Positions 1,815 through 31,788 are shown, numbered from the stretch's first letter. The stretch is DNA of 32,000 nt from Microcystis aeruginosa NIES-843 (GCF_000010625.1 NC_010296.1:660001-692000), one strand, 5' to 3'. The notes: a model not told the origin generated them from the letters alone. Numbers and translations: made by a program.

Positions 1815-2033
1815 ATAATTTTACGGCAAGCGCGAAGATGAAAGGACTTTCTAGGCCGATAATTTCTCGATTCTAACCGATCGAAGCCCGGAAGGTGTAG
1901 GCGAACCGAAAACCCTCTCCATTAAGGACCCGTGTTAAAATCGTTAATCATGCTATTGTCTAGAAGCGACCTATGCCGAACTTAACCTTAAGCAATGAAC
2001 AAGTTATCGACTTATTCAAACAACTCCCCGAAG
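1815..2033. repeat. 219-bp block (about 158 bp upstream region plus the first 20 codons of antitoxin 1973..2212), copy 1 of 2
   Basis: Aligns by eye, base for base with a handful of substitutions, to 3734-3952 (ataattttacggcaagcgcgaagatgaaaggactttctaggccgataatttctcg...caactccccgaag). Confidence 0.9.
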
Positions 2034-2212
2034 ACCAGAAACGGGAAGTTTATAAAATTCTCATTCTCAGTCAGTGGAGACAGTTGGAACCAGTATTTAA
2101 TGAAGGAGCAGAAAGAGCTAGAATCGTAGCCAAAGAACGCGGCTATGATTGGGATACCATGACGGAAGACGAGAGAGAAGAATTTATCGATGAAATCGTT
2201 CACGAAAAATAG
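1973..2212 (+). CDS. Putative antitoxin (small acidic protein coupled to the PIN gene)
   Basis: 79-aa ORF. Its TAG stop overlaps the GTG start of the downstream PIN gene (TAGTG). The antitoxin assignment rests on context only. Confidence 0.5.
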   Translation: MPNLTLSNEQVIDLFKQLPEDQKREVYKILILSQWRQLEPVFNEGAERARIVAKERGYDWDTMTEDEREEFIDEIVHEK

Positions 2213-2640
2213 TGACCTATGTAGTTGTTTTTGATACAAATATATTAATCTCTGCTTGGCTGTCTAAAAACAGCCCTACATTTTCCTGTTTATCGTTAGC
2301 GAAGACGGGATCGGTATCTTCAGTAACTTGCCAAGAGATTTTAGACGAATTATCCGAAAAACTCCAGCAGAAATTTCAAATATCTGAACGGGGACTTAGA
2401 GAATATATCGCGGAAATTCGTCAATTTTCTAGCCTTGTTCCGATAACAAGACAACTGAGAGCGGTTCCCAACGATCCCGATGACGATATGATCATAGAAT
2501 GTGCGATTGTTGGCAAGGCTACCCATATTATCACGGGGGACAAACATCTTCTTTCACTGGTTGAATATCAAAATATTCAGATCGTGAAAGCAAAAGATTT
2601 TCTGGACTTTTTAGATCAAAATAATAACCATCAATTATGA
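2212..2640 (+). CDS. PIN-family toxin (TIGR00305-like putative toxin component)
   Basis: 142 aa: VVVFDTNILISAWLSKN...DDDMIIECAIVGKATHIITGDKHLL, the typical PIN acidic-residue pattern. Confidence 0.7.
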   Translation: MTYVVVFDTNILISAWLSKNSPTFSCLSLAKTGSVSSVTCQEILDELSEKLQQKFQISERGLREYIAEIRQFSSLVPITRQLRAVPNDPDDDMIIECAIVGKATHIITGDKHLLSLVEYQNIQIVKAKDFLDFLDQNNNHQL

Positions 2641-2827
2641 ACTTTACTCAATGGGATTTTATTAAAAGATATTCGCGAAGCAAGATTATCCGCAGGAGAC
2701 GTGGGAACCTTGGTAGAAAAACATCAAATCGAGGGATTAGAAAGGGGTTATAGTGTCGAGTTTTCCGATAGGTTGAGAAAAACGATCGCCCTACCAAAGA
2801 CGTTGAATACCGTACCGATCTAAAATA

Positions 2828-2964
2828 AGACCTCTTGCAAAAGTCTTAAGTCGATCCTTGTACAGCAACATTTTTGAAGATTATCAACTACTAATAAATA
2901 ATTAACTGAAAGTCCTTCCCATTATTGTTTCTATCGTTTGTTTTCGGATTTATGCAAGAGGTCT
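2828..2964. mobile_element. 137-bp MITE whose ends match those of the IS5-superfamily element at 19426-20643
   Basis: The ends agacctcttgcaaaag ... tatgcaagaggtct are inverted repeats and match the IS termini (agacctcttgcata / tttgcaagagttct). A 3-bp direct repeat ATA flanks it (2825-2827 and 2965-2967). Confidence 0.8.
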
Positions 2965-3239
2965 ATAGTATCTACACTAATAATCGGAATATTTTCAACA
3001 ATGGCTTGAGCTACCAGAAGGCGATCAAAGGGGTCTTTATGATAAAAAGGAAGGGTGATCAGCGCATCCGTATGTTCTGGTGTGATGGCAAGGATATTAA
3101 ATTGATATTGATTAAGGCATACGTCGATAAAATCTTTGTAAGATTGATGTAAAATGAGTTTACCGATACTGATTTTGATGGCGATTTCCCAATAGGATGC
3201 TGGGCTGATTAATATTTCGTTATTTTGGTTAATAATTAG

Positions 3240-3425
3240 GGTTCTTCGTTACTTGGTATGGTTCAATAGGGGGGCATAAATCGACTAAATCCTTATCTGG
3301 CAAGAGACTTAATTGATTAGTTCGCTCTAGATCGAAAACAATTGACATAAATCCCCGAATGTCTTTCTATATAAGAGTTTCATTCCTTGTAACCCTGTCC
3401 GTTGCATAAGACAAACCGAAGAACC
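3240..3425. mobile_element. 186-bp MITE, copy 1 (inverted relative to the copy at 11587-11774)
   Basis: Terminal inverted repeats ggttcttcg...cgaagaacc. 8-bp TSD ataattag at 3232-3239 and 3426-3433. The reverse complement of 11587-11774 aligns along the full length. Confidence 0.85.
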
Positions 3426-3507
3426 ATAATTAGTTGATGGGCGGCGCTACTTAGTGGGGATTCGTTGAGTGTGTACCAAAGCAGAGTATGGGTATCGATT
3501 AGACATT

Positions 3508-3735
3508 TCAATGCAGATACTCCGCGAAGTCTTGTAAGTGTTCTTCATCATCGGCCACGATGGTAATCATTCCTTTACATAGGCCAGGCCCCGGACGTTG
3601 GGGAGATGTGGGGGTTTGCCCGATTAATTTGGCTAGTGGGAGATTATTATCGGTAATCAACAATTCTTCCCCCGGTTTGAGATTGTATATCAGTTCGGGC
3701 AGTTTGGCTTGAGCTTCTTGGAGAGAGACAATCAT
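3508..3735 (-). CDS. Phd/YefM-like antitoxin, now orphaned beside the disrupted vapC
   Basis: 75 aa: MIVSLQEAQAKLPELIYNLKPGEELLITDNNLPLAKLI...ITIVADDEEHLQDFAEYL. The stop overlaps the vapC TTG start. Confidence 0.65.
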   Translation of the reverse strand: MIVSLQEAQAKLPELIYNLKPGEELLITDNNLPLAKLIGQTPTSPQRPGPGLCKGMITIVADDEEHLQDFAEYLH

Positions 3736-3952
3736 AATTTTACGGCAAGCGCGAAGATGAAAGGACTTTCTAGGCCGATAATTTCTCGATTCTAACCGAT
3801 CGAAGCCCGGAAGGTGTAGGCGAACCGAAAACCTTCTCCATTAAGGACCGGTGTTAAACTGATTAATCATGCTGGTGTCTAGAATTGACCTATGCCGAAC
3901 TTAACCTTAAGCAACGAACAAGTTATCGACTTATTCAAACAACTCCCCGAAG
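3734..3952. repeat. 219-bp block, copy 2 of 2 (duplicate of 1815-2033)
   Basis: Same sequence as copy 1. Here the 20-codon antitoxin 5' end (MPNLTLSNEQVIDLFKQLPE) runs into A-stop at the breakpoint after ccccgaag. Confidence 0.9.
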
Positions 3953-3962
3953 CATAGCAAGA

Positions 3963-4202
3963 ATGAGCCTTAATAATATGAGCAAAATTTCGATCGAAGT
4001 CAGTCCCGAAGCGGCAGAAGTCTATCAATCCGCATCCCCGGAGGAACAAGAACGCGTCCGGGTTCTTGTCGATTTGCTAATTAGAAAGCCAGTTAACAGC
4101 GATATCGATTTCTTGAGAAAACTAATGGACGAAATTAGTGATGAGGCGGAAGCTAGAGGATTAACCCCCGAAATTTTAGAATCTTTACTAAATGAGCCTT
4201 GA
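3963..4202 (+). CDS. Putative antitoxin (start uncertain; the tracked ORF begins at TTG 3885 inside the duplicated block)
   Basis: MSLNNMSKISIEVSPEAAEVYQSASPEEQERVRVLVDLL... Its 3' end overlaps the next PIN-like ORF start by 11 nt (that ORF starts at ATG 4192; stop TGA at 4200-4202). Confidence 0.5.
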   Translation: MSLNNMSKISIEVSPEAAEVYQSASPEEQERVRVLVDLLIRKPVNSDIDFLRKLMDEISDEAEARGLTPEILESLLNEP

Positions 4203-4392
4203 ATATTCTTTTATTCTCGATACCAACGTTTTAGTAAGCGCGCTTCTGTCGAAAAACGGCAAAGCTCGTCAGGCATTAGACAAAGCCCAAAATATCGGCA
4301 AGCTTTTAATGTCCGAATCTACTTTGTTAGAATTGATCACTGTTTTCAATCGTCCCAAATTCGATATTACACAGGAGCATATTTTACCATGA
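4192..4392 (+). pseudogene. Truncated PIN toxin (N-terminal 66 aa only)
   Basis: MSLEYSFILDTNVLVSALLSKNGKA... parallels the N-terminus of the 142-aa PIN at 2212..2640. It stops at 66 aa, overlapping (ATGA) the start of the next cassette. Confidence 0.6.
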
Positions 4393-4712
4393 ATATTACC
4401 TTAAATCCCGAATTAGAACAGTTAATTAACTCTCAATTATCGACAGGGAAATATAATAGCGTTGAAGATTTATTGAAAGACGCTTTGTTAAATTTAGCGG
4501 ACAAACAAAACCGTCAGGCTTTAAGCAAAAAAGTTAAAGAACTCTTCGATAAAACTCAATCCTTACCCGGCGTTCAGGATATTACCGAAGAAGAGATCGC
4601 CGAAGAAATTGAAGCGTACCGAAGAGAGGGCTTAAAAGAAAAATGGGCTAAATGGTTTCAAGAAGTTGAAGAAATGGAATTTCCTGCCTCTGAAATTAGT
4701 GAAAAGGACTAG
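4389..4712 (+). CDS. ParD/RHH-type antitoxin-like protein
   Basis: MNITLNPELEQLINSQLSTGKYNSVEDLLKDALLNL resembles the ParD (COG3609-type) N-terminus. Lies upstream of a PIN gene. Confidence 0.6.
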   Translation: MNITLNPELEQLINSQLSTGKYNSVEDLLKDALLNLADKQNRQALSKKVKELFDKTQSLPGVQDITEEEIAEEIEAYRREGLKEKWAKWFQEVEEMEFPASEISEKD

Positions 4713-4756
4713 GAAAATCTTTTGATGGATAAATATAAACAACAGGGATTGATCCT

Positions 4757-5137
4757 ATGATCCTGTGCGATACTGCCCCTTTATTCTGTTCGGTAGATAA
4801 ATCTCAGCCACGACATCAAGCAGTTAAAATTTTTATCGAGAATGAGTCCTCTTATCTAATAACAACTTGGGCTTGTTTTACCGAATCCATGTATCTCTGC
4901 TTGCAACGTGGGGGATGGTCGATGCAAGCTCAACTCGGTAAATTGCTATTGAAGAAAATGGTACGGTTAGCCTCGATCGAAGAAAAAGATTATCCTCGAT
5001 TACTGTCACTGATGGAAAAATATAAAGATCGCCCAATGGATTTAGCTGATGCGACTTTAGTCGTAACGGCTGAGAATTTAAAAATCAAACGAATTTTAAC
5101 CTTCGATTCCGATTTTTTCTCGGTCAGCATCATTTAA
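4757..5137 (+). CDS. PIN-domain toxin (VapC-like)
   Basis: 126 aa: MILCDTAPL...DLADATLVVTAENLKIKRILTFDSDF. Confidence 0.65.
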   Translation: MILCDTAPLFCSVDKSQPRHQAVKIFIENESSYLITTWACFTESMYLCLQRGGWSMQAQLGKLLLKKMVRLASIEEKDYPRLLSLMEKYKDRPMDLADATLVVTAENLKIKRILTFDSDFFSVSII

Positions 5138-7493: not shown

Positions 7494-9458
7494 TTAATTT
7501 CTTAGGCCATAATTAAAACTCAATAACTTTAACCATAGGCGAGGATTGTCTTTTTCTAGCCAGCTTTGGGAGTTTTTTAACCATTGGGAAAACCAGGGAC
7601 CGAAAAGCAGATTTTTGACTCCATCAAGGCTAAAATCGAGATAGGAACCCAACCAACGAATTAAATCCTGACTGCCAGCCATTTCTGCTATCCATAACAG
7701 TAAAGCGGGGTTTTTTCTGGCCGCTTTAATTGCTAAACGGCTAAAGGTCAACCAATCGGTTTTATCCTTAATAAAAGTTTCGGAAATCTCCGGCGGTTCG
7801 TCGGCCAATAAACCGAAAAATGTGTTTAACATGGCGTTAATTCTTTGGGGTGGTAAGGTTTTTCCCGTGGGAACCATCATTCCTTTAGAAAATAACCAAG
7901 TTACCGCCACATTACTTTGATAGGCCCGCACGTTTTCTAGGTCTTTAGCTGTTAGTAAATCGTGTTTCAAGGCCAGATCCAAAAGATGGGTTAAGCGCTC
8001 TAAATTACGCACCAAAGAACCGAACCCAGTAAAAATTAAGGGTGATTGCAGGGAGGCGGCATCACCGATGGCTAAAATGCGATCAAAGGAGACAATTCGA
8101 TCTTTTTTCCCTGTGCTAAAATGCCCCGGTATATAACCAAAGGTGGGTTTTTTCCAAGTTAATTTTTCTGGGTCACACTGTCGATATTCGGGCAAAATAG
8201 TAAAGAAATCTTCGTACATTTCCAACAAAGAACCGGGGTTATCGGGATGGACTTGATGATAGTGAAATAGATAAAAGGTTAATTCTTTTCCTTCCCCCGG
8301 AAATAATTCCCAAATTAATTGCCTACCTTTAGAAATATCGCCATGGGAATTTAAGACATCGCCATAGTGAGAATCCCACACCACCGGATCGAATCCTTCT
8401 ACTACTGCCCCCACCGTCGGACAGACACTATCAAAGGCACGCACTCCATTTAATTGCCAGGCAATGGCAGAGGCTGAACCCATGGCATCAATCAATAAAC
8501 GGCATTTTATCTGTTGAATTTCCCCGCTATGATTAAGGGTGACAGTAACACTATTGGCAGTAATATCAGCCTTGATAAATTCCGTTTGATCGAGAATTTT
8601 ACCGCCATGATCCTGTATTTTTTTACCGCAGGATTGCAGCAATTTATCGGAATTAATGGCGATATTTAAAACCGTGGGAGTATGGAGAATTTCGGCTTTC
8701 AGATGGGGGGGATTATTGCCATCAAAAAACTTATTAAAGCCATCGATGTATTCTTGGAAGATTAATTCCTCGAATTCTTCGGCAGTAAATAAGCCTAAAT
8801 TAATTAAACTTTGAAACTCCGATCGAGAGATATTCCATTCCCGATTCATTCGTCCGAAAGGTAGTCTTTCTACTAAGAGGACTCGATAACCTAATTTGGC
8901 CATCTGTGCGGCGTGAATTGCCCCCAAGGCACCACCAATATAAATTAAGTCGTAGGTGATGGGATGATCATTTTCCTCACTACTAGAGAAAATTACTGGC
9001 TGCGGTTGTTGGGGATTTTTGGCACTGTCGCGCCAACGTTTTTCCCACCAGTACAAACGTTCTAAGTCTGCCTCTCCTTGGGGCATTTTGCGGAAGTAGT
9101 GAACCGTTAGGGGATAGTCCGCTTCTAAATCTGTAAAAATTGAGTGATTTTTTTGATCGATGTTTGGTATCGTGCTAAACTGCGGCGGAAAACGCTTTTG
9201 TAAAGCTCGATCGAGCTGCCGAGTCAGGGATGTTTCTTGAGAATGCGATCGCTCACCCCAGCGGAAAACTTTTAAATAAGTAGTCCGTTGCAGCGTCCAG
9301 ACAAAAATCGATAATTCGATCGCCTCCGATAAGCGCAATCTCACCCCGTTAGGTGTATTTGTCTTGACACCGCTTGCGGGTTGCCAATCGGATTGTAACC
9401 ACTGACAAACGGCGATCGAGTCGGGAGTCGGAATTTCTCTGTAAAGTATCTCTCTCAT
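7494..9458 (-). CDS. FAD-dependent oxidoreductase, CruA-type lycopene-cyclase-like
   Basis: 654 aa. Rossmann motif DLIYIGGALGAIHAAQMAKLGYRVLLVE lies after a ~170-aa N-terminal extension. The size and layout recall cyanobacterial CruA/CruP, but the specific CruA assignment is uncertain. Confidence 0.55.
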   Translation of the reverse strand: MREILYREIPTPDSIAVCQWLQSDWQPASGVKTNTPNGVRLRLSEAIELSIFVWTLQRTTYLKVFRWGERSHSQETSLTRQLDRALQKRFPPQFSTIPNIDQKNHSIFTDLEADYPLTVHYFRKMPQGEADLERLYWWEKRWRDSAKNPQQPQPVIFSSSEENDHPITYDLIYIGGALGAIHAAQMAKLGYRVLLVERLPFGRMNREWNISRSEFQSLINLGLFTAEEFEELIFQEYIDGFNKFFDGNNPPHLKAEILHTPTVLNIAINSDKLLQSCGKKIQDHGGKILDQTEFIKADITANSVTVTLNHSGEIQQIKCRLLIDAMGSASAIAWQLNGVRAFDSVCPTVGAVVEGFDPVVWDSHYGDVLNSHGDISKGRQLIWELFPGEGKELTFYLFHYHQVHPDNPGSLLEMYEDFFTILPEYRQCDPEKLTWKKPTFGYIPGHFSTGKKDRIVSFDRILAIGDAASLQSPLIFTGFGSLVRNLERLTHLLDLALKHDLLTAKDLENVRAYQSNVAVTWLFSKGMMVPTGKTLPPQRINAMLNTFFGLLADEPPEISETFIKDKTDWLTFSRLAIKAARKNPALLLWIAEMAGSQDLIRWLGSYLDFSLDGVKNLLFGPWFSQWLKNSQSWLEKDNPRLWLKLLSFNYGLRN

Positions 9459-24204: not shown

Positions 24205-24335
24205 GTACTTTTTCAACTTTTTAGAAAACCCAACAATTAGGAAAACAAAAATAAGATAACCTTATCGGCGATCGATGGCATTTTCTGGAATTAATTACTA
24301 AAATAGGATTATATTGTATTGTGAGTGTTTCTAAT

Positions 24336-24680
24336 ATGTCCAAGCCGGTAGAATACTTAACAAATGAGCAAGGGGAACGAGTTGGGGTTTTATTAGACTG
24401 GAACACCTATTCTCGATTTGCCAATTCATTAGGACTCGATGAAGATTGTTTGATTGGTTTGAGTGTGGATGAATTAAAAGCGCTGGCAAGTTGTCAATTG
24501 TCCCTCGTAGAGCAAACCCGTTTAGATGATTTAGTGACGAGAAATGCAGAATCTTTACTCTGCGCTGATGAAGTAGCTGAGTTAGATGAGTTGTTGGCAA
24601 AAACAGATCAATTAACAATTCTTAAAACTCGTGCCAGATATACGCTAAAGTGCTTGGAACAAGGTACGACAGCAGCGTGA
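24336..24680 (+). CDS. Small hypothetical protein (antitoxin-like size; function unknown)
   Basis: The tracked ORF starts at GTG 24321; the ATG at 24336 gives MSKPVEYLTNEQGERVGVLLDWNTY... No confident family. Confidence 0.45.
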   Translation: MSKPVEYLTNEQGERVGVLLDWNTYSRFANSLGLDEDCLIGLSVDELKALASCQLSLVEQTRLDDLVTRNAESLLCADEVAELDELLAKTDQLTILKTRARYTLKCLEQGTTAA

Positions 24681-24843: not shown

Positions 24844-24910
24844 CTGCTAGGGGTTGGGGGGTTGCCTTTTTCCTCGTCTCAACAGGTAATTTAAATACTT
24901 GACAGCATCA

Positions 24911-27583
24911 ATGATTGACTGGACTCCCTATCTCAAATCAATCTCGGACTCGGAAAAGTACGCCCAGTGGGAGACATTTTACACCCTCACGGACGTAGAG
25001 GGAAAAACACGCCCAGCGAAAACTGCACCTTTGCTAAGGGATTTGTGGGTACAGACGATTGAAAAAGAACCACAAAACCGACAAGAAAGACCAGAAAGAC
25101 CAGAAAAAACCGAAAGATTCACGGTTTTAGATGGTTTACGCAAGTATGCAACTAATCACGTTCTTTTAAAAGGTCGTCCCGGTTCAGGAAAATCGACCGC
25201 TTTAGCCAGATTATTATTAGAAGAATCCGTAGCGGTGCAAAGCTTGCGCCTAAATCAACAAAATCAGGCTAAAATCATTCAAATTCCCATTCTCATCGAA
25301 TTACGCTTGTATGAAACCTCAATTCTTGATTTAATTTTACAATTCCTGAAACGCCATAAATTAATTATTGATAGTAATACCCTAGAAAGTTGGCTGTTAG
25401 AAAATCAGAATTTTAGACCATTATTATTATTTGATGGTATCAATGAATTGCCCTCGGAAGCTGCGCGACAGAATTTAAAAAACTTTCGCCAGCAGTATGC
25501 AGAAATTTCGATGATTTTCACCACAAGGGATTTAGGCAGCGACGACTTAGATATTGAAAAAAAGCTGGAAATGCTCCCCCTGAGCGAAGCACAGATGCGG
25601 GATTTTGTCAAGGTCTATTTGCCCGAAAAAGGCGAAGAAATGCTTAAACAGTTGGGAAATCGTCTCAAGGAATTTGGCCAGACTCCTCTGCTTTTGTGGA
25701 TGCTTTGTTCAGTTTTTGATAATAATCAGAACAAAATTCCTGCTAATTTAGGCTTAGTTTTCCAGATTTTTACAGGAATTTATGACAAGAAATTAAAAGC
25801 AGATGTTCCTACTTACCAAGAATCGCGGGATTGGTGGCGAGAATTGCTGCAAGTGTTAGCTTGGAAAATGAACCAAGGGGAGTCAAAAACTGAGATTCAG
25901 GTGGCTATTTCCCGAACAGAAGCAGAGGAAGAATTAAGCAAATTTATAAAAAATAAAGGATTCCCAGAATATTACAGTAAGCAGTGGTTAGAAGATTTAT
26001 TGAAATATCATCTAATTCACCTAGAAGGTAATGATAAAATTGCTTTTCGCCACCAACTGATTCAAGAATATTACACGGCTGAGGAATTAAAGAAAAAGTT
26101 ACCCCATCTCAGGGATGAGCAGTTACAGTGGGACTATTTAAATTATCTCAAATGGACGGAACCTATGGCGTTGCTGCTGGGGTTATTGGATAATGAAACC
26201 CAAGCAAAACGGGTGGTTAAATTAGGGTTAGAGATTGATTTAAAATTAGGAGCGAGGTTAGCAGGAGAAGTCAACTTTAAGTTTCAAAAGCAGACAGTGG
26301 GGTTAGTGCTGCGGTTGGATGTACCAAAACGGTTTAAGGTGGAGTTATTGGGATTAACAAAGTCTAATGAAGTTGTTAATGAGTTAAGTCAAGCTTTAAA
26401 AGACTCTGATGAGGATGTTCGTCGGAACGCAGCCGAGGCTTTGGGTGAAATTGGCTCGGAAAAAGCCATTCCGGGATTAATCAAGGCTTTAGAAGACTCT
26501 GATGATGATGTTCGTAGGAAGGCAGCCGAGGCTTTGGCTGAGATTGGCTCAGAAACAGCCATTCCGGGGTTACTCAAGGCTTTAAAAGACTCTGATAGGT
26601 ATGTTCGTAGGAGTGCAGCCGAGGTTTTGGCTGAGATTGGCTCAGAAACAGCCATTGCGGGATTAATCAAGGCTTTAGAAGACTCTGATAGGTTTGTTCG
26701 TAGTAGGTATGTTCGTAGGAGAGCCGCCGCGGCTTTGGGTAAAATTGGCACAGAAACAGCCATTGCGGGATTAATCAAGGCTTTAGAACACTCTGATGGG
26801 GATGTTCGTTTCCAGGCAGCATTCGCTTTGGGTAAGATTGGCTCAGAAACAGCTATTCCGGAGTTACTCAAGGCTTTAGAACACTCTGATGATGATGTTC
26901 GTGGGGAGGCAGCCGAGGCTTTGGCTGAGATTGGCACAGAAACAGCCATTCCGGGATTACTCAAGGCTTTAGAAGACTCTGATGTGTTTGTTCGTAGGAA
27001 GGCAGCCTTCGCTTTGGGTAAGATTGGTTCAGAAACAGCCATTCCGGGATTACTCAAGGCTTTAGAAGACTCTAATCAGTATGTTCGTAGCAACGCAGCC
27101 TTCGCTTTGGGTAAGATTGGTTCAGAAACAGCCATTCCGGGATTACTCAAGGCTTTAGAAGACTCTAATCAGTATGTTCGTAGCAACGCAGCCTTCGCTT
27201 TGGGTGAAATTGGCTCAGAAACAGCCATTCCGGGATTACTCAAGGCTTTAGAAGACTCTGATGAGGATGTTCGTAGCAACGCAGCCTTCGCTTTGGGTGA
27301 AATTGGCTCGGAAACAGCCATTGCGGGGTTACTCAAGGCTTTAGAAGACTCTAATCAGTATGTTCGTAGCAACGCAGCCTTCGCTTTGGGTGAAATTGGC
27401 TCAGAAACAGCCATTCCGGGATTACTCAAGGCTTTAGAAGACTCTGATGAGGATGTTCGTAGCAACGCAGCCTTCGCTTTGGGTGAAATTGGCTCGGAAA
27501 CAGCCATTGCGGGGTTACTCAAGGCTTTAGTGGGACTTAAACGCCAAATAAAGATCAAATCGAGTATAATCGTTAAAGAGTAA
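24911..27583 (+). pseudogene. NACHT-type P-loop NTPase + 12 HEAT units: 5' part of an IS-split NLR-like gene (native sequence ends at 27530)
   Basis: Walker A GRPGSGKST; LLLFDGINEL; then tandem 31-aa units ETAIPGLLKALEDSxxxVRxxAAxALGxIGS. The last 17 residues (VGLKRQIKIKSSIIVKE), the first of which spans the junction at 27530/27531, are encoded by the IS end. The TTG at 24899 is an alternative start. Confidence 0.85.
27159..27530 (+). repeat. Perfect tandem duplication of a 186-bp (two-HEAT-unit) block
   Basis: 27159-27344 and 27345-27530 read identically base for base. The whole array has 93-bp periodicity from about 26368 to 27530 and from 28898 to about 29570. Confidence 0.85.
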
Positions 27584-28893
27584 GCACTTTACGTTGAAAG
27601 ATCAGCGATGAAAGAGACAACCCCAGCCGCGATGCCCCCATGCTTTGACCGATGGTGTCGGCGGTTTGACAATTGCTTCAAAAACGAAGCGCAAAAAAAC
27701 GGCTTCAGACAATATTTAGGAGGATTATTAGGGGAAAGTGAGCGGAAAAACCTCACTCAAATGGCCAATAATGCCGTCGGAGTAGTTTATAACCGATTAC
27801 ATCACTTTTTGACCGAATCTCCCTGGTCAGACCGTCAGGTGAATGAATGTCGGTTGCAAGTGATGAACCAATGCCGCCAGACGCAAATCCCCCGAGGATT
27901 TTCCCTGATTGTCGATGACTCAGGACATCGAAAAAGTGGCAATCTGACCGCCGGAGTTGGCAGGCAGTACCTAGGAGAAATTGGCAAGACAGACAACGGA
28001 ATAGTCGCCGTCACTACCCATCTCTACGACGGCAAAAAAAGTGTCCCCCTAGACATTGAAATTTATCAACCGGCTAGTTCCTTAGCCGAGGGGAAAGAAG
28101 ACAAAGAATTTAAGAAGAAACCAGAGATAGCGATAGATTTAATTGACCGGAGCTTAACCAGAGGCTATCGACCGAAAATCGTCTTAATAGATGCTGGTTA
28201 TGGCAACAACACAAATTTTCTCAAAGCCCTGGAAGAAAGAAAGCTAAAATACTTAGGAGGATTGGCAAAAAATCGAAAAGTAATTATTGAAAAAGAAGGG
28301 GGTGTGGAAGAAACAATCCAGCTTGAGCAACTAGCAAAAAGCCTATCAGAAAAGGATTGGGAGAAAATCACCCTAAATCTAGATAAAGAAAAAACGGTTT
28401 GGGTAGCGGTATTCAGAGCGAAAATATCTCAACTAGAAGGAGAAAGGAACTTGGCGATCGTCATGAATGCAAGTTCAATGGAAAAAGCCACAGAGGTGGA
28501 CTATTTCATCACCAATGTAGTTGAGGCAGATACAGTAACAGCTTCGTGGATAGTGAGGACTTACACCGAAAGAAATTGGGTGGAAGTATTCTACCGAGAA
28601 GCCAAAGGATGGTTAGGGTTAAGGGAATATCAAGTCAGGGATAAACGAAGCTTACTTCGTCATTTTATCCTGGTGTTTTGTGCCTATACATTTATCCTGT
28701 GGCATAAGTTAACTGGGGGATTGCAAAGGCAGTGGGCGAATCGACCTTTAAACACTTTTGTGGAAGCCTTGGAAGCTTTTCGGACAGCGATGTCTTTCCG
28801 TTTCTTTGAGTGGCTGACCGAGAATCGGGATGTGTTTGCCGCTTACAAAGCCAGTTTAGGCTTTGTTTGGGCTTGAAATTTGTTTAAGTCCCA
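27531..28893 (+). mobile_element. IS701-family insertion sequence, 1363 bp
   Basis: 12-bp perfect TIR tgggacttaaac / gtttaagtccca. 4-bp TSD TTAG at 27527-27530 and 28894-28897. Contains a single 422-aa transposase ORF. Confidence 0.85.
27608..28876 (+). CDS. IS701-family (DDE) transposase
   Basis: 422 aa: ...FRQYLGGLLGESERKNLTQMA...LHHFLTESPWSD...LIVDDSGHRKSG...GVGRQYLGEIGKTDNGIVAVT...VLIDAGYGNN... These motifs are typical of IS701-type transposases. Confidence 0.8.
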   Translation: MKETTPAAMPPCFDRWCRRFDNCFKNEAQKNGFRQYLGGLLGESERKNLTQMANNAVGVVYNRLHHFLTESPWSDRQVNECRLQVMNQCRQTQIPRGFSLIVDDSGHRKSGNLTAGVGRQYLGEIGKTDNGIVAVTTHLYDGKKSVPLDIEIYQPASSLAEGKEDKEFKKKPEIAIDLIDRSLTRGYRPKIVLIDAGYGNNTNFLKALEERKLKYLGGLAKNRKVIIEKEGGVEETIQLEQLAKSLSEKDWEKITLNLDKEKTVWVAVFRAKISQLEGERNLAIVMNASSMEKATEVDYFITNVVEADTVTASWIVRTYTERNWVEVFYREAKGWLGLREYQVRDKRSLLRHFILVFCAYTFILWHKLTGGLQRQWANRPLNTFVEALEAFRTAMSFRFFEWLTENRDVFAAYKASLGFVWA

Positions 28894-28897
28894 TTAG

Positions 28898-30342
28898 AAG
28901 ACTCTGATGATTATGTTGTTCGTTGGAGCGCAGCCGAGGCTTTGGCTGAGATTGGCACAGAAACAGCCATTCCGGGGTTACTCAAGGCTTTAGAAGACTA
29001 TGATGATTATGTTCGTAGGAAGGCAGCCTTCGCTTTGGGTAAGATTGGTTCAGAAACAGCCATTCCGGGATTACTCAAGGCTTTAGAAGACTCTGATGAG
29101 GATGTTCGTCGGAACGCAGCCGAGGCTTTGGGTGAAATTGGCTCAGAAACAGCCATTCCGGGATTACTCAAGGCTTTAGAAGACTCTGATGATGATGTTC
29201 GTAGGAACGCAGCCTTCGCTTTGGGTAACATTGGCTCAGAAACAGCCATTCCGGAGTTACTCAAGGCTTTAGAAGACTCTGATGATTGGGATTGGTCTGG
29301 TAGGAACGCAGCCTTCGCCTTGGGTAATATTGGCTCAGAAACAGCCATTCCGGAGTTACTCAAGGCTTTAGAAGACTCTAATGAGTATGTTCGTGGGAAG
29401 GCAGCCGAGGCTTTGGGTAAAATTGGCTCGGAAACAGCCATTGGGGGGTTACTCAAGGCTTTAAAAGACTATGATGAGTATGTTTGTTGGAACGCAGTCG
29501 AGGCTTTGGGTAAGATTGGCTCAGAAGCGGCGATGACTGAACTTATCAAATGCCTGAAAAATCCTGATTTTGTCACATTAAATGATGGCTATACTCTCTC
29601 TCCAGCTAGAGAAGCACTAGACACAATTCAAAACAAACTTAAATACTATCACCCCCTCTCCCAACCCATGAATCAACAAGTTTACATCTCCTACAACTGG
29701 CAAGAAGACAGCAACGAAATGGCTAATCAACTCGTCCAAGCTTTTGCCGCTAAAGGAATTGAGATTATTCGGGATAAAACCCACACCAGCTATAAAGACT
29801 CCATCAAAAACTTTATGCGGCAAATTGGACAGGGGAAATGTGTCGTCGCCGTCATCAGCGATAGATACTTAAAATCAGAAAACTGTATGTTTGAATTAGT
29901 AGAAATTGCCAGAAATGGTGACTTTTATCAAAGAATATTCCCGATTATTTTACCAGATGCCAGAATTCATAAAGACTTGGAGCGCATAGACTACCTGAAA
30001 TATTGGGAAGACGAAAAAGCAAAACTACAAGCAAAATACAAACAAATTGATTTAGCTAAAACTAATAGTATCATGGCGACATTAAACTTGTATGATGAAA
30101 TCAGGGGCAATATTGATAATCTAACTAATATTCTTAAAGATATGAATACTCTCAATATCGACTTACACCGCCAATCGGAATTTGCAGCTATGATTCAAAA
30201 AGTAGAAACTAAACTTGCAGAGGATAGTCAAAAATTATCTAATCAATCTCCAGTCAAGTCAGAATCTAAATATACTATCCATGCCAAAAACGTCCAGATT
30301 ATTGAAAAAGGTGATGGACAGATTCAGGATTCTAGTTCGTAG
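28898..30342 (+). pseudogene. 7 HEAT units + C-terminal TIR domain: 3' part of the IS-split NLR-like gene (the tracked ORF starts at internal TTG 28942)
   Basis: The frame is continuous with 27530. TIR-like: QQVYISYNWQEDSNEMANQLVQAFAAKGIEIIRDK...KCVVAVISDRYLKSENCMFELVEIA, followed by a helical ~130-aa tail. Confidence 0.8.
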
Positions 30343-30391
30343 TTGTGCTTAAGCGGGTGCGTCTCGCATTTGCAGAAATACCGAAAACTTT

Positions 30392-30420
30392 TCGCCTTAA
30401 AAGGCGAGGTTTTAAACCCG
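30392..30420 (+). terminator. Possible weak intrinsic terminator after the TIR-encoding ORF
   Basis: tcgcct-taaa-aggcga hairpin followed by ggttttaaacccgatttttt. The stem is short, so this is tentative. Confidence 0.3.
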
Positions 30421-30447
30421 ATTTTTTGATAACTTTTAATTGCTGAC

Positions 30448-30711
30448 ATGACTAAATATCTAAACATTACTGAAACAGGACAAAAGCTGGTTGAATGGTC
30501 TGAGCAAATGACTGACGAACCTATTATTATTACCAAAGAAGGTCAACCCATTATGGTTGCCCTGAATTACGCTCAAATTGAATCTTGGTTGGAAACTCTT
30601 GATATTTTACAAGACAAAGAGTTTGCCGAAATCCTATCTGAAGCAATTCAACAGGATCAATCAGGACAAAGAATTACTTGGGAAGATGCTAAAAAACAAC
30701 TCGGTTGGTAA
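30448..30711 (+). CDS. Phd/YefM-family antitoxin
   Basis: 87 aa: ...EPIIITKEGQPIMVALNYAQIESWLETLDILQD... The stop overlaps the toxin ATG (TAATG). Confidence 0.75.
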   Translation: MTKYLNITETGQKLVEWSEQMTDEPIIITKEGQPIMVALNYAQIESWLETLDILQDKEFAEILSEAIQQDQSGQRITWEDAKKQLGW

Positions 30712-31019
30712 TGGAATATCAAATACAATTAATTCCTCTTGCTTTAAGCTTTTTATCTAAAATTACCGATAAACGCATTCAGCAAGAAATTCGCAAACGG
30801 ATTGAAAAGCTAAAAATTGAACCAGATAAACAAGGTAAAGCCCTTTCAGGTAAACTTAAAGGATATCGTAGCGTTAGGGCAGTTGGTCAAAGATATCGGA
30901 TTGTCTATCGTGTTGAAGAAGCTCAAATTATTGTTATTGTTATTGGAGTTGGAATTCGTAAACAAGGTGATAAAAAAGATATTTATGCCCTTCTTGAAAA
31001 ATTAATTAATAATGAATAA
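30711..31019 (+). CDS. RelE/ParE-family toxin
   Basis: MEYQIQLIPLALSFL...LSGKLKGYRSVRAVGQRYRIVYRVEEAQIIVIVIGVGIRKQGD..IY. The tracked ORF starts 6 nt upstream at a TTG. Confidence 0.75.
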   Translation: MEYQIQLIPLALSFLSKITDKRIQQEIRKRIEKLKIEPDKQGKALSGKLKGYRSVRAVGQRYRIVYRVEEAQIIVIVIGVGIRKQGDKKDIYALLEKLINNE

Positions 31020-31067
31020 AATATGGGTTATGACAGAACTGCTAAACCAATAGGTTCTTGCTGAATC

Positions 31068-31277
31068 GTGAGATATACACCTATTACTTTTTCAGAGATA
31101 GCCAGTTTTGGAGAGGATAGTCAAAATATTCCTGCTTCTTCTGAAAAAAACGCATCCCTATCATCTATTACCTATGATTTCAGAGGAGCTACCATTGGCA
31201 ATTTAGCTCATAATGTGCAAGGAAGCCAACAGAATTATCCCCAGCAACCTAATAACAATAACCCAGAGAAAAAATAA
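31068..31277 (+). CDS. Small Q/N-rich hypothetical ORF (GTG start); may not be a real gene
   Basis: 69-aa ORF ending 1 nt before the HEAT gene ATG. Low-complexity C-terminus. Confidence 0.25.
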   Translation: MRYTPITFSEIASFGEDSQNIPASSEKNASLSSITYDFRGATIGNLAHNVQGSQQNYPQQPNNNNPEKK

Positions 31278-31278
31278 C

Positions 31279-31788
31279 ATGGTTCAGCAACTTAATAACA
31301 CCCAAATCGCCATCAATACTTTATTGAATAAACTCAACGATTCTCTCCCCCAGATCCGCGCTAAAGCTGCCGAAGCCTTGGGCAAAATTGGCAATAGCAG
31401 CCTTGCCGACACCTTAGTATCCCATTTAATAGGAGAAAATGATCTTAATGTTCGCCTAAATCTGATTCGAGCTTTAGGAGAAATTGGCAATGAATCCGCA
31501 ATTCCTTATCTAGCTTCCTGCTTATCTGATACTAATCCCGATATTCGGATAATCACGGCGGAATCTATCGGAAAAATTGGTAGTGAAAAAGCAATATCCT
31601 ATCTCATTCAATCCCTACAAGATACGGAAGTAAAAGTTCGTGTCACAGCCACAATTGCTTTAGGTGAAATTGGACTAGAAGATGTTATTCCTGATCTAGT
31701 AAATGTTTGTTCCGATGAAGATGATAGCGTTCGTTTCAGTGCTGTTGATGCCCTCGGTAAAATTGGCTCTCGTTATGCAGTAAACTGA
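31279..31788 (+). CDS. Stand-alone HEAT-repeat (PBS-lyase type) protein
   Basis: The ATG at 31279 gives MVQQLNNTQ... with five diverged units (IRAKAAEALGKIGN, VRLNLIRALGEIGNESAIPYL, IRIITAESIGKIGSEKAISYL, VRVTATIALGEIGLEDVIPDL, VRFSAVDALGKIGS). Confidence 0.7.
   Translation: MVQQLNNTQIAINTLLNKLNDSLPQIRAKAAEALGKIGNSSLADTLVSHLIGENDLNVRLNLIRALGEIGNESAIPYLASCLSDTNPDIRIITAESIGKIGSEKAISYLIQSLQDTEVKVRVTATIALGEIGLEDVIPDLVNVCSDEDDSVRFSAVDALGKIGSRYAVN

Follow-up and report, generated by a model that had tools for sequence, protein, structure and literature searches.

In Microcystis aeruginosa NIES-843, a 32,000-nucleotide stretch of the chromosome (NC_010296.1:660001-692000; here called the window, from whose first letter all positions are counted) carries two long plus-strand open reading frames (ORFs), 24899-27583 and 28942-30342, with an ORF for a 422-residue transposase between them. 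The two long ORFs are one gene, which was a single ORF until an IS701-family insertion sequence entered it. The intact product was probably a single-gene protein resembling nucleotide-binding leucine-rich-repeat receptors (NLRs) and belonging to clade 22 of the bacterial NACHT (bNACHT) proteins, in which a NACHT switch is followed by a hypervariable solenoid of HEAT_PBS repeats and then by a Toll/interleukin-1 receptor (TIR) domain with a helical extension, TIR-C. In the NIES-843 genome, the gene is inactivated, i.e., it is a non-functional pseudogene.

An Insertion Sequence Splits a Single Gene

The first features concern the junction between the two halves of the gene.

24899-27530, + strand: 5' segment of the split gene, codons 1-877 and the first base of codon 878 (probable true start, ATG at 24911)
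27527-27530, unstranded: left copy of the TTAG target-site duplication, read from the sequence
27531-28893, + strand: IS701-family insertion sequence, 1363 bp, with 12-bp perfect inverted repeats TGGGACTTAAAC and the transposase ORF at 27608-28876
28894-28897, unstranded: right copy of the TTAG target-site duplication, read from the sequence

The intervening element belongs to the IS701 family: it has a DDE transposase, terminal inverted repeats, and a 4-bp TTAG duplication. Specifically, its transposase reaches 344 bits with NCBIfam's model for IS701, NF033540 (cutoff 150), and matches Pfam DDE_5 at 1.8e-43, and the inverted-repeat motif TGGGACTTAAAC occurs three times in the window at no more than one mismatch, versus 0.16 occurrences expected by chance. 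The upstream frame stops at ...GLLKAL plus one base, so codon 878 is interrupted in phase 1, within HEAT unit 13. Joining 27530 to 28898, which removes the element and one TTAG copy, yields a 4077-nt frame with a single terminal stop at 30342 and 1358 codons counted from the TTG at 24899. The original prediction, made from the sequence alone, had proposed that an IS701 copy splits one gene and had placed the junction, the duplication, and the stop at these positions; the inverted repeats, the duplication, and the restored frame uphold it. Its start codon fares less well. Every homologue begins at MIDWTPY, which corresponds to the ATG at 24911, so the real start is probably that ATG and the protein has 1354 residues, in the same frame.

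Because the target duplication and the inverted repeats are perfect and the frame is otherwise open, the sequences indicate that the insertion is recent. Its consequence is that the two fragments, NACHT-HEAT(12.x) and HEAT(6.x)-TIR, are uncoupled in this strain. The predicted 5' product consists of the NACHT module, approximately 12.5 HEAT units, and an 18-residue foreign tail, and the 3' ORF encodes 6.5 HEAT units and then the TIR domain, without the nucleoside triphosphatase (NTPase) switch.

A search of other Microcystis genomes for an uninterrupted allele, as had been suggested, found intact single ORFs. Orthologues of 754-1191 residues lie at the same locus, which is defined by genes for malic enzyme and VanY upstream and by Phd/ParE, a 69-residue ORF, and a 169-residue HEAT protein downstream. 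At least seven uninterrupted alleles were examined, two of them in complete chromosomes. Among the intact alleles are those of 868, 862, and 865 residues in L001, L005, and L088, respectively (our handles). The complete chromosomes of Microcystis sp. BLCC-F210 (NZ_CP169647.1) and M. ichthyoblabe FBCC-A1114 (NZ_CP191408.1) carry intact alleles of 1191 and 1126 residues, each with VanY upstream and Phd downstream; ParE, the 69-residue ORF, and the gene for the 169-residue HEAT protein were also detected downstream in NZ_CP191408.1. Neither of these two loci harbors a copy of the insertion element. More distant single-ORF NACHT-HEAT-TIR proteins are 48-57% identical in the NTPase module, and one distant homologue, P0069, resides in an unrelated neighborhood.

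The notion that the two ORFs are naturally separate genes, one for NACHT-HEAT and one for HEAT-TIR, could draw on Microcystis viridis NIES-102, which has separate 754-residue and 293-residue family products, but it is refuted and retains essentially no probability, because intact single-ORF alleles occupy the syntenic locus, what lies at the junction is a classic insertion, complete with inverted repeats, a target duplication, and an exactly restored frame, and the NIES-102 products end in unrelated, out-of-family tails. These two products of the complete NIES-102 genome, P0048 (NACHT-HEAT) and P0141 (HEAT-TIR), merit a remark of their own: since both end in unrelated tails, the sequences suggest that the NIES-102 orthologue was independently disrupted.

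A NACHT Switch, a HEAT Solenoid, and a Terminal TIR Domain

The restored protein had been described as having four parts, namely an N-terminal region, an NTPase, a HEAT array, and a TIR-like domain with a tail. Pfam, Tandem Repeats Finder, and fold searches bear out this anatomy. The features of the NTPase are as follows.

25151-26383, + strand: NACHT (NOD) module, by Pfam and fold, with winged-helix and helical subdomains after the Walker motifs
25172-25198, + strand: Walker A, GRPGSGKST (the Lys98 codon begins at 25190)
25421-25447, + strand: Walker B, LLLFDGINE, read from the sequence

Pfam NACHT (PF05729) matches residues 88-242 with 28.4 bits when the N-terminal 500 residues are searched alone (cutoff 26.7), and the same match drops to 25.6 bits, below that cutoff, in the full-length protein. 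Because a sequence search of the PDB with the 496-residue NACHT module gave no significant match, the fold was taken from an AlphaFold2 model of P0002, a 754-residue natural allele that is 97% identical here (mean predicted local distance difference test score [pLDDT] 79.7). Foldseek places NLRC4 (3.6e-11), NLRP3 (3.9e-9), and NOD2 (7e-9) ahead of Apaf-1 and ORC. As modeled, the NTPase is of the NACHT class, with a fold closest to those of animal NLRs. The N-terminal 83 residues match no Pfam family, and in the P0002 model the first approximately 85 residues comprise short helices and a disordered linker, as well as strands that become part of the NTPase sheet. A hidden N-terminal effector was sought with Pfam and in the P0002 model and was not found.

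The NTPase is followed by the HEAT array and its cap.

26384-27530, + strand: HEAT_PBS array from unit 1 to the first part of unit 13 (Pfam, Tandem Repeats Finder)
28898-29541, + strand: HEAT_PBS array, the rest of unit 13 to unit 19 (Pfam, Tandem Repeats Finder)
29542-29676, + strand: degenerate capping unit and linker (KCLKNPDF...IQNKLKYYHPL), kept in TIR-bearing and TIR-less alleles; homology with the TIR-less allele stops at 29658

Pfam HEAT_PBS recognizes 19 stretches in the repaired protein, and Tandem Repeats Finder reports a repeat period of 93 bp. Of the original description of 19 tandem 31-residue units, the count holds; the length is exact in 16 of the 19, and the other three have 1-5 extra residues. 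Among the 16 canonical units, variation concentrates at positions 10, 11, 14, 15, 22, and 30, with F or E at position 18. At those six of the 31 positions, nonsynonymous and synonymous differences number 464:33, versus 444:164 at the other 25, and certain units are 100% identical in DNA. Given this nonsynonymous excess and the DNA-identical units, the pattern fits a recognition surface that diversifies through repeat shuffling. The number of HEAT units ranges from 1 to 19 between natural alleles, a range to be read with the caveat that certain short alleles may be collapsed assemblies.

The C-terminal part of the protein comprises the effector and what follows it.

29680-30024, + strand: TIR domain (Pfam TIR_2, PDB alignment, Foldseek)
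29893-29895, + strand: putative catalytic Glu1210 in NCMFELVEIA (alignment to L6, RPV1, and Roq1)
30025-30243, + strand: the helical extension TIR-C, in which W, L, Y, N, and F positions are invariant (homologue alignment, model)
30244-30342, + strand: haplotype-specific, low-confidence tail and stop codon; the tail was made by the insertion of a toxin-antitoxin cassette

Profile, structure, and alignment agree on the TIR domain and on the glutamate that the original prediction had located at the catalytic position. Specifically, Pfam TIR_2 matches residues 1139-1253 with 55-57 bits (cutoff 28), and Pfam TIR matches with 27 bits (cutoff 21.3). The structure was modeled from the last 263 residues (pLDDT 76). 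The top 34 Foldseek matches in the PDB are all TIR domains, with probabilities of at least 0.97 (1.00 for most) and target-normalized TM-scores of up to 0.69; they include RUN1, L6, RPS4, RPP1, SPARTA, BtpA, and AbTir, with SARM1 lower in the list. By sequence, the PDB matches are the plant TIRs L6, RPV1, Roq1, and RUN1. Glu1210 aligns with the Glu of L6 CLMELAEI, RPV1 CLDELVKI, and Roq1 CLEELVKI, which is established as the catalytic Glu of NAD+-cleaving TIR enzymes (TIR NADases). Glu1210 is invariant throughout the 38 homologues aligned, whose identity to the window sequence is 39-97%; the S, C, and M of the surrounding S..NCM[FY]EL motif and several TIR-C residues are likewise invariant in that alignment. 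The TIR domain is real by profile and by fold, its Glu lies in the catalytic position, and from these features we infer NADase activity.

What had been called a helical tail is indeed a helical extension, but it is a conserved module that appears under the name TIR-C in the census of Kibby et al. (bioRxiv 10.1101/2022.07.19.500537). The TIR-C region and the tail match no Pfam family. Scanning reference genomes, one per species, revealed 414 loci whose products are related to the TIR/TIR-C module. In the top 80 of these, the module lies no more than 60 residues from the ORF end in 71 and has at least 600 residues upstream of it in 34; its partners include NACHT-HEAT, LRR or WD40-Roc-COR, and TPR/EAD proteins. 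Judged from these ORFs, terminal position is the rule for this TIR subfamily. An exhaustive profile search returned 3508 representatives at E <1e-3.

Place among Known NLR-Like Systems

The architecture is not new. The class has been catalogued before, as has a Microcystis protein with an identical domain string: clade 22 in Table S1 of the bNACHT census lists WP_110543657.1, from M. aeruginosa, as NACHT+HEAT_2x3+TIR+TIR-C (Kibby et al., 10.1101/2022.07.19.500537). The window protein and this entry share genus, domain string, domain order, and TIR-C, and both place the effector at the extreme C-terminus; the likeness is one of species, domain string, and domain coordinates. The window copy differs in having more repeats (19), in being split by an IS701-family element, and in having its C-terminal motif displaced by a cassette. 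Clade 22, as listed there, also contains NACHT-HEAT-TIR proteins of Nodosilinea and Halomicronema, versions with a C-terminal caspase or PNPase, and versions with an N-terminal EAD8 or trypsin (Kibby et al., 10.1101/2022.07.19.500537). The bNACHT class is described in the literature as antiphage, and the census notes effectors positioned after repeats. Thus, the original prediction, which regarded an effector after the repeats as unusual, was correct with respect to characterized Avs and bNACHT proteins and incorrect with respect to catalogued clade 22; since the census already lists the same domain string in Microcystis, novelty was overstated. Tested bNACHT proteins carry their effectors at the N-terminus or have none, whereas the window protein has a C-terminal TIR.

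Comparison with other systems situates the individual parts. Avs (AVAST) proteins and the window protein are both single-polypeptide sensors that join a STAND NTPase to a repeat sensor, and they share an expected logic in which ligand binding leads to oligomerization and then to effector activation. However, Avs proteins have an N-terminal effector and mostly TPR-like sensors, whereas the window protein has an NTPase that is NACHT-class by fold, HEAT repeats, and the TIR last. In both sequence and fold, the nearest TIR relatives of solved structure are plant TIR-containing NLRs (TNLs), such as RPP1 and ROQ1, and the TIRs of L6, RUN1, and RPV1, and the catalytic Glu aligns. Plant TNLs also combine a STAND NTPase, a TIR, and a repeat sensor, but their order is TIR-NB-ARC-LRR, with the TIR first and not last, and the window protein differs further in its NACHT-class switch and its HEAT repeats.

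Two other likenesses concern the terminal TIR. SARM1 (ARM-SAM-SAM-TIR), like the window protein, carries an alpha-solenoid of ARM/HEAT type N-terminal to a C-terminal TIR, and its TIR NADase is activated by oligomeric proximity. The resemblance is an analogy only: in SARM1 there is no NTPase, a constitutive ring is built from the SAM domains, and the ARM domain acts as an allosteric inhibitor. Bacterial ROCO-type LRR/WD40-Roc-COR-TIR proteins, which are large and likewise built of a switch and repeats, contain the same TIR/TIR-C module, of the same TIR subfamily (approximately 44-51% identity), at their extreme C-terminus; in them, however, a Roc GTPase serves as the switch, with the repeats ahead of it.

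Proposed Mechanism and Alternatives

By analogy with the behavior of NLRs, Avs proteins, plant TNLs, and SARM1, the intact protein would likely have functioned as a single-gene abortive-infection sensor in which oligomerization activates a TIR NADase. The HEAT array would bind a trigger, most plausibly a phage protein. Binding would free the NACHT module for nucleotide exchange and oligomerization, and oligomerization would, in turn, cluster the C-terminal TIR domains and assemble NAD+-cleaving active sites. NAD+ would then be depleted, or a signaling nucleotide would be made, and growth of the infected cell would stop. Because the number of HEAT units varies from 1 to 19, the TIR would have no fixed position relative to the NACHT ring. 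This variation favors induced proximity, or release of a HEAT clamp, over a solenoid that returns the effector to the N-terminal position.

Several observations weigh against this reading. An effector that can be reached across 1-19 HEAT units sits poorly with a rigid-geometry activation model. The TIR subfamily has Asn where L6 has Trp, four residues before the Glu, so the reaction product is not predictable. TIR function is dispensable, given that the gene is disrupted here and that TIR-less alleles are common. The flanks of the gene are housekeeping genes and toxin-antitoxin modules, not a classical defense island. PADLOC and NCBIfam scans of the NACHT and TIR parts assigned no system or family and gave weak matches only, to mad8, bSEFIR, and PDC-S66; the PADLOC Avs models gave no match, and the N-terminal 500 residues matched only mad8, at E 3.9e-5. 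Finally, among the clade-22 rows examined in Table S1 of Kibby et al. (10.1101/2022.07.19.500537), none bears the label of a tested protein.

The alternative that survives best, possible but unlikely, is that the TIR is a signal generator in the style of Thoeris or plant TNLs, i.e., that, instead of killing through bulk NAD+ depletion, it produces a nucleotide, either a cyclic ADP-ribose isomer or a related one, by which a separately encoded effector is switched on. Plant TNL TIRs are its closest solved relatives, and the conserved TIR-C and the conserved C-terminal motif described below could be interaction surfaces. However, neither the window ORFs scanned nor the called-gene tables of L001 and L004-L007 yielded a SLOG, Macro, SIR2, SLATT, or other partner that senses nucleotides. 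The distant homologue P0069, moreover, stands alone among housekeeping genes. A ThsA-like partner was likewise absent from those ORFs and tables, which makes direct NAD+ depletion by the abortive-infection sensor the simpler output.

A function other than antiviral defense is less likely still: the protein could be a switch of colonial cyanobacteria for programmed cell death or kin conflict, or could survey some host process. Among bacteria, multicellular and colonial forms are enriched in NACHT and TIR conflict systems, and the HEAT_PBS gene, which in every allele type comes right after the NLR gene, could encode a guarded host partner. Conversely, the hypervariable repeat positions and the presence/absence polymorphism at the locus are consistent with an arms race in which the non-self ligand changes. 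The host process that had been suggested, surveillance of phycobilisomes, is rejected. HEAT_PBS is a repeat type, and that type is the sole connection; there is no link to phycobilisome genes, and the downstream 169-residue HEAT protein, whose best NCBIfam match is NblB, reaches 74.8 bits against a cutoff of 300 and lies far below the CpcE cutoff as well.

There is very little to be said for a TIR that is a non-catalytic scaffold or that acts on nucleic acid, as reported for certain plant TIRs. The Foldseek matches do include the L7 TIR-dsDNA complex 7x5l, and the Asn in place of the L6 Trp ahead of the Glu is compatible with this idea, but across the 38 homologues the Glu and the S..NCM[FY]EL motif hold with few or no exceptions, as expected for a catalytic site.

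Alleles, the Toxin-Antitoxin Cassette, and Neighboring Genes

Downstream of the TIR-C region, the window contains the following features.

30234-31126, + strand: 893-bp insertion relative to L088, with a 15-bp direct repeat, AGAGGATAGTCAAAA, on either side (at 30219-30233 and 31112-31126)
30448-30711, + strand: Phd/YefM antitoxin gene in the cassette (profile match)
30705-31019, + strand: ParE/RelE toxin gene in the cassette (profile match)
31068-31277, + strand: orphan 69-residue ORF, the 3' part of which is the displaced ancestral C-terminus of the NLR, with the motif SSITYDFRGATIGNLAHNVQGSQQNY
31279-31788, + strand: gene for the 169-residue HEAT_PBS protein, immediately downstream of the NLR gene in each type of allele

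Three types of allele occur at the locus. Type A (L004, L006) encodes NACHT-HEAT ending in a conserved motif, SSITYD(L/F)RGATIGNLAHNVQGxQQNY...PEKK, without the TIR and without the toxin-antitoxin pair. In type B (L088), TIR and TIR-C are inserted ahead of the C-terminal motif in one ORF. Type C, to which the window belongs, is type B plus the 893-bp Phd/ParE cassette at the 15-bp direct repeat. Comparison of window 29658-31161 with L004 8247-8293 reveals the TIR, TIR-C, and toxin-antitoxin segment as a presence/absence polymorphism at a fixed locus, and TIR-less alleles of 800-830 residues are common among the Microcystis homologues found. Insertion of the cassette gave the NLR gene a new tail and stranded the ancestral motif in the 69-residue ORF. 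The motif SSITYDFRGATIGNLAHNVQGSQQNY terminates both the TIR-less (L004, L006) and the TIR-bearing (L088) alleles, and relatives that are 67% identical over the TIR module retain it at their extreme C-terminus.

This motif, of approximately 25 residues and rich in G, N, Q, V, and I, resembles in length and composition the bacterial amyloid signaling (BASS) motifs as described by Dyrka et al.; such motifs are known to occur after TIR2 and CHAT effectors. When further proteins with this C-terminal G/N/Q motif were sought, only 69-residue orphan ORFs came back, and no partner that shares it was found. We regard it as improbable that the motif, S-I-T-Y-D-x-R-G-A-x-I-G-N-L-A-H-N-V-Q-G-x-Q, is an amyloid-like (BASS-type) signaling element at the NLR C-terminus. 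If it were, activated NACHT-HEAT proteins would pass a prion-like signal to each other or to other proteins, the TIR alleles would be "all-in-one" derivatives, and the locus would switch between templated and built-in effector output.

The gene for the 169-residue HEAT protein starts 2 nt past the NLR stop in types A and B. This spacing, in alleles that lack the toxin-antitoxin cassette, suggests that the two genes may be co-transcribed; alternatively, the HEAT protein may be a partner of the NLR-like protein.

The rest of the neighborhood yielded three side observations. First, a 119-residue ORF at 24321-24680, between VanY and the NLR gene, has a negligible RelB-like match (E 0.16). It is present in the TIR haplotypes L001 and L013, absent from the TIR-less L004, and undetected in the TIR-bearing L008 and L010; it was set aside as a partner of the NLR-like protein and is considered an unrelated, orphan antitoxin-like gene. 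Second, the DNA just downstream of the NLR locus in other strains (L004 9640-12345, L001 13023-13763) has its counterpart, in reverse orientation, at window positions 1815-5120, a segment with PIN-domain toxin genes (2212-2640 and 4757-5137), and the reversed match points to an inversion or relocation on a scale of approximately 20 kb in this genome. Third, a 654-residue ORF on the minus strand, 7494-9458, has no Pfam match at E <1e-5.

Significance

As a discovery, the gene has small value: its class and a Microcystis protein with its domain string are already catalogued, and the window copy is a pseudogene. The allelic series and the repeat diversification add modestly to that value. The gene is, nonetheless, a clean natural case of an NLR-like protein with its effector after the sensor repeats, a layout that is listed in censuses and is not known to have been studied mechanistically. 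The locus constitutes a handy test bed: the number of near-identical HEAT units differs between Microcystis strains, from 1 to 19, the TIR is present in some alleles and missing from others, as is the toxin-antitoxin cassette, and the repeats diversify at specific positions. Two questions are thereby opened: how a C-terminal TIR is activated when its distance from the NTPase ring varies, and whether repeat shuffling is a source of recognition diversity in a bloom-forming cyanobacterium.

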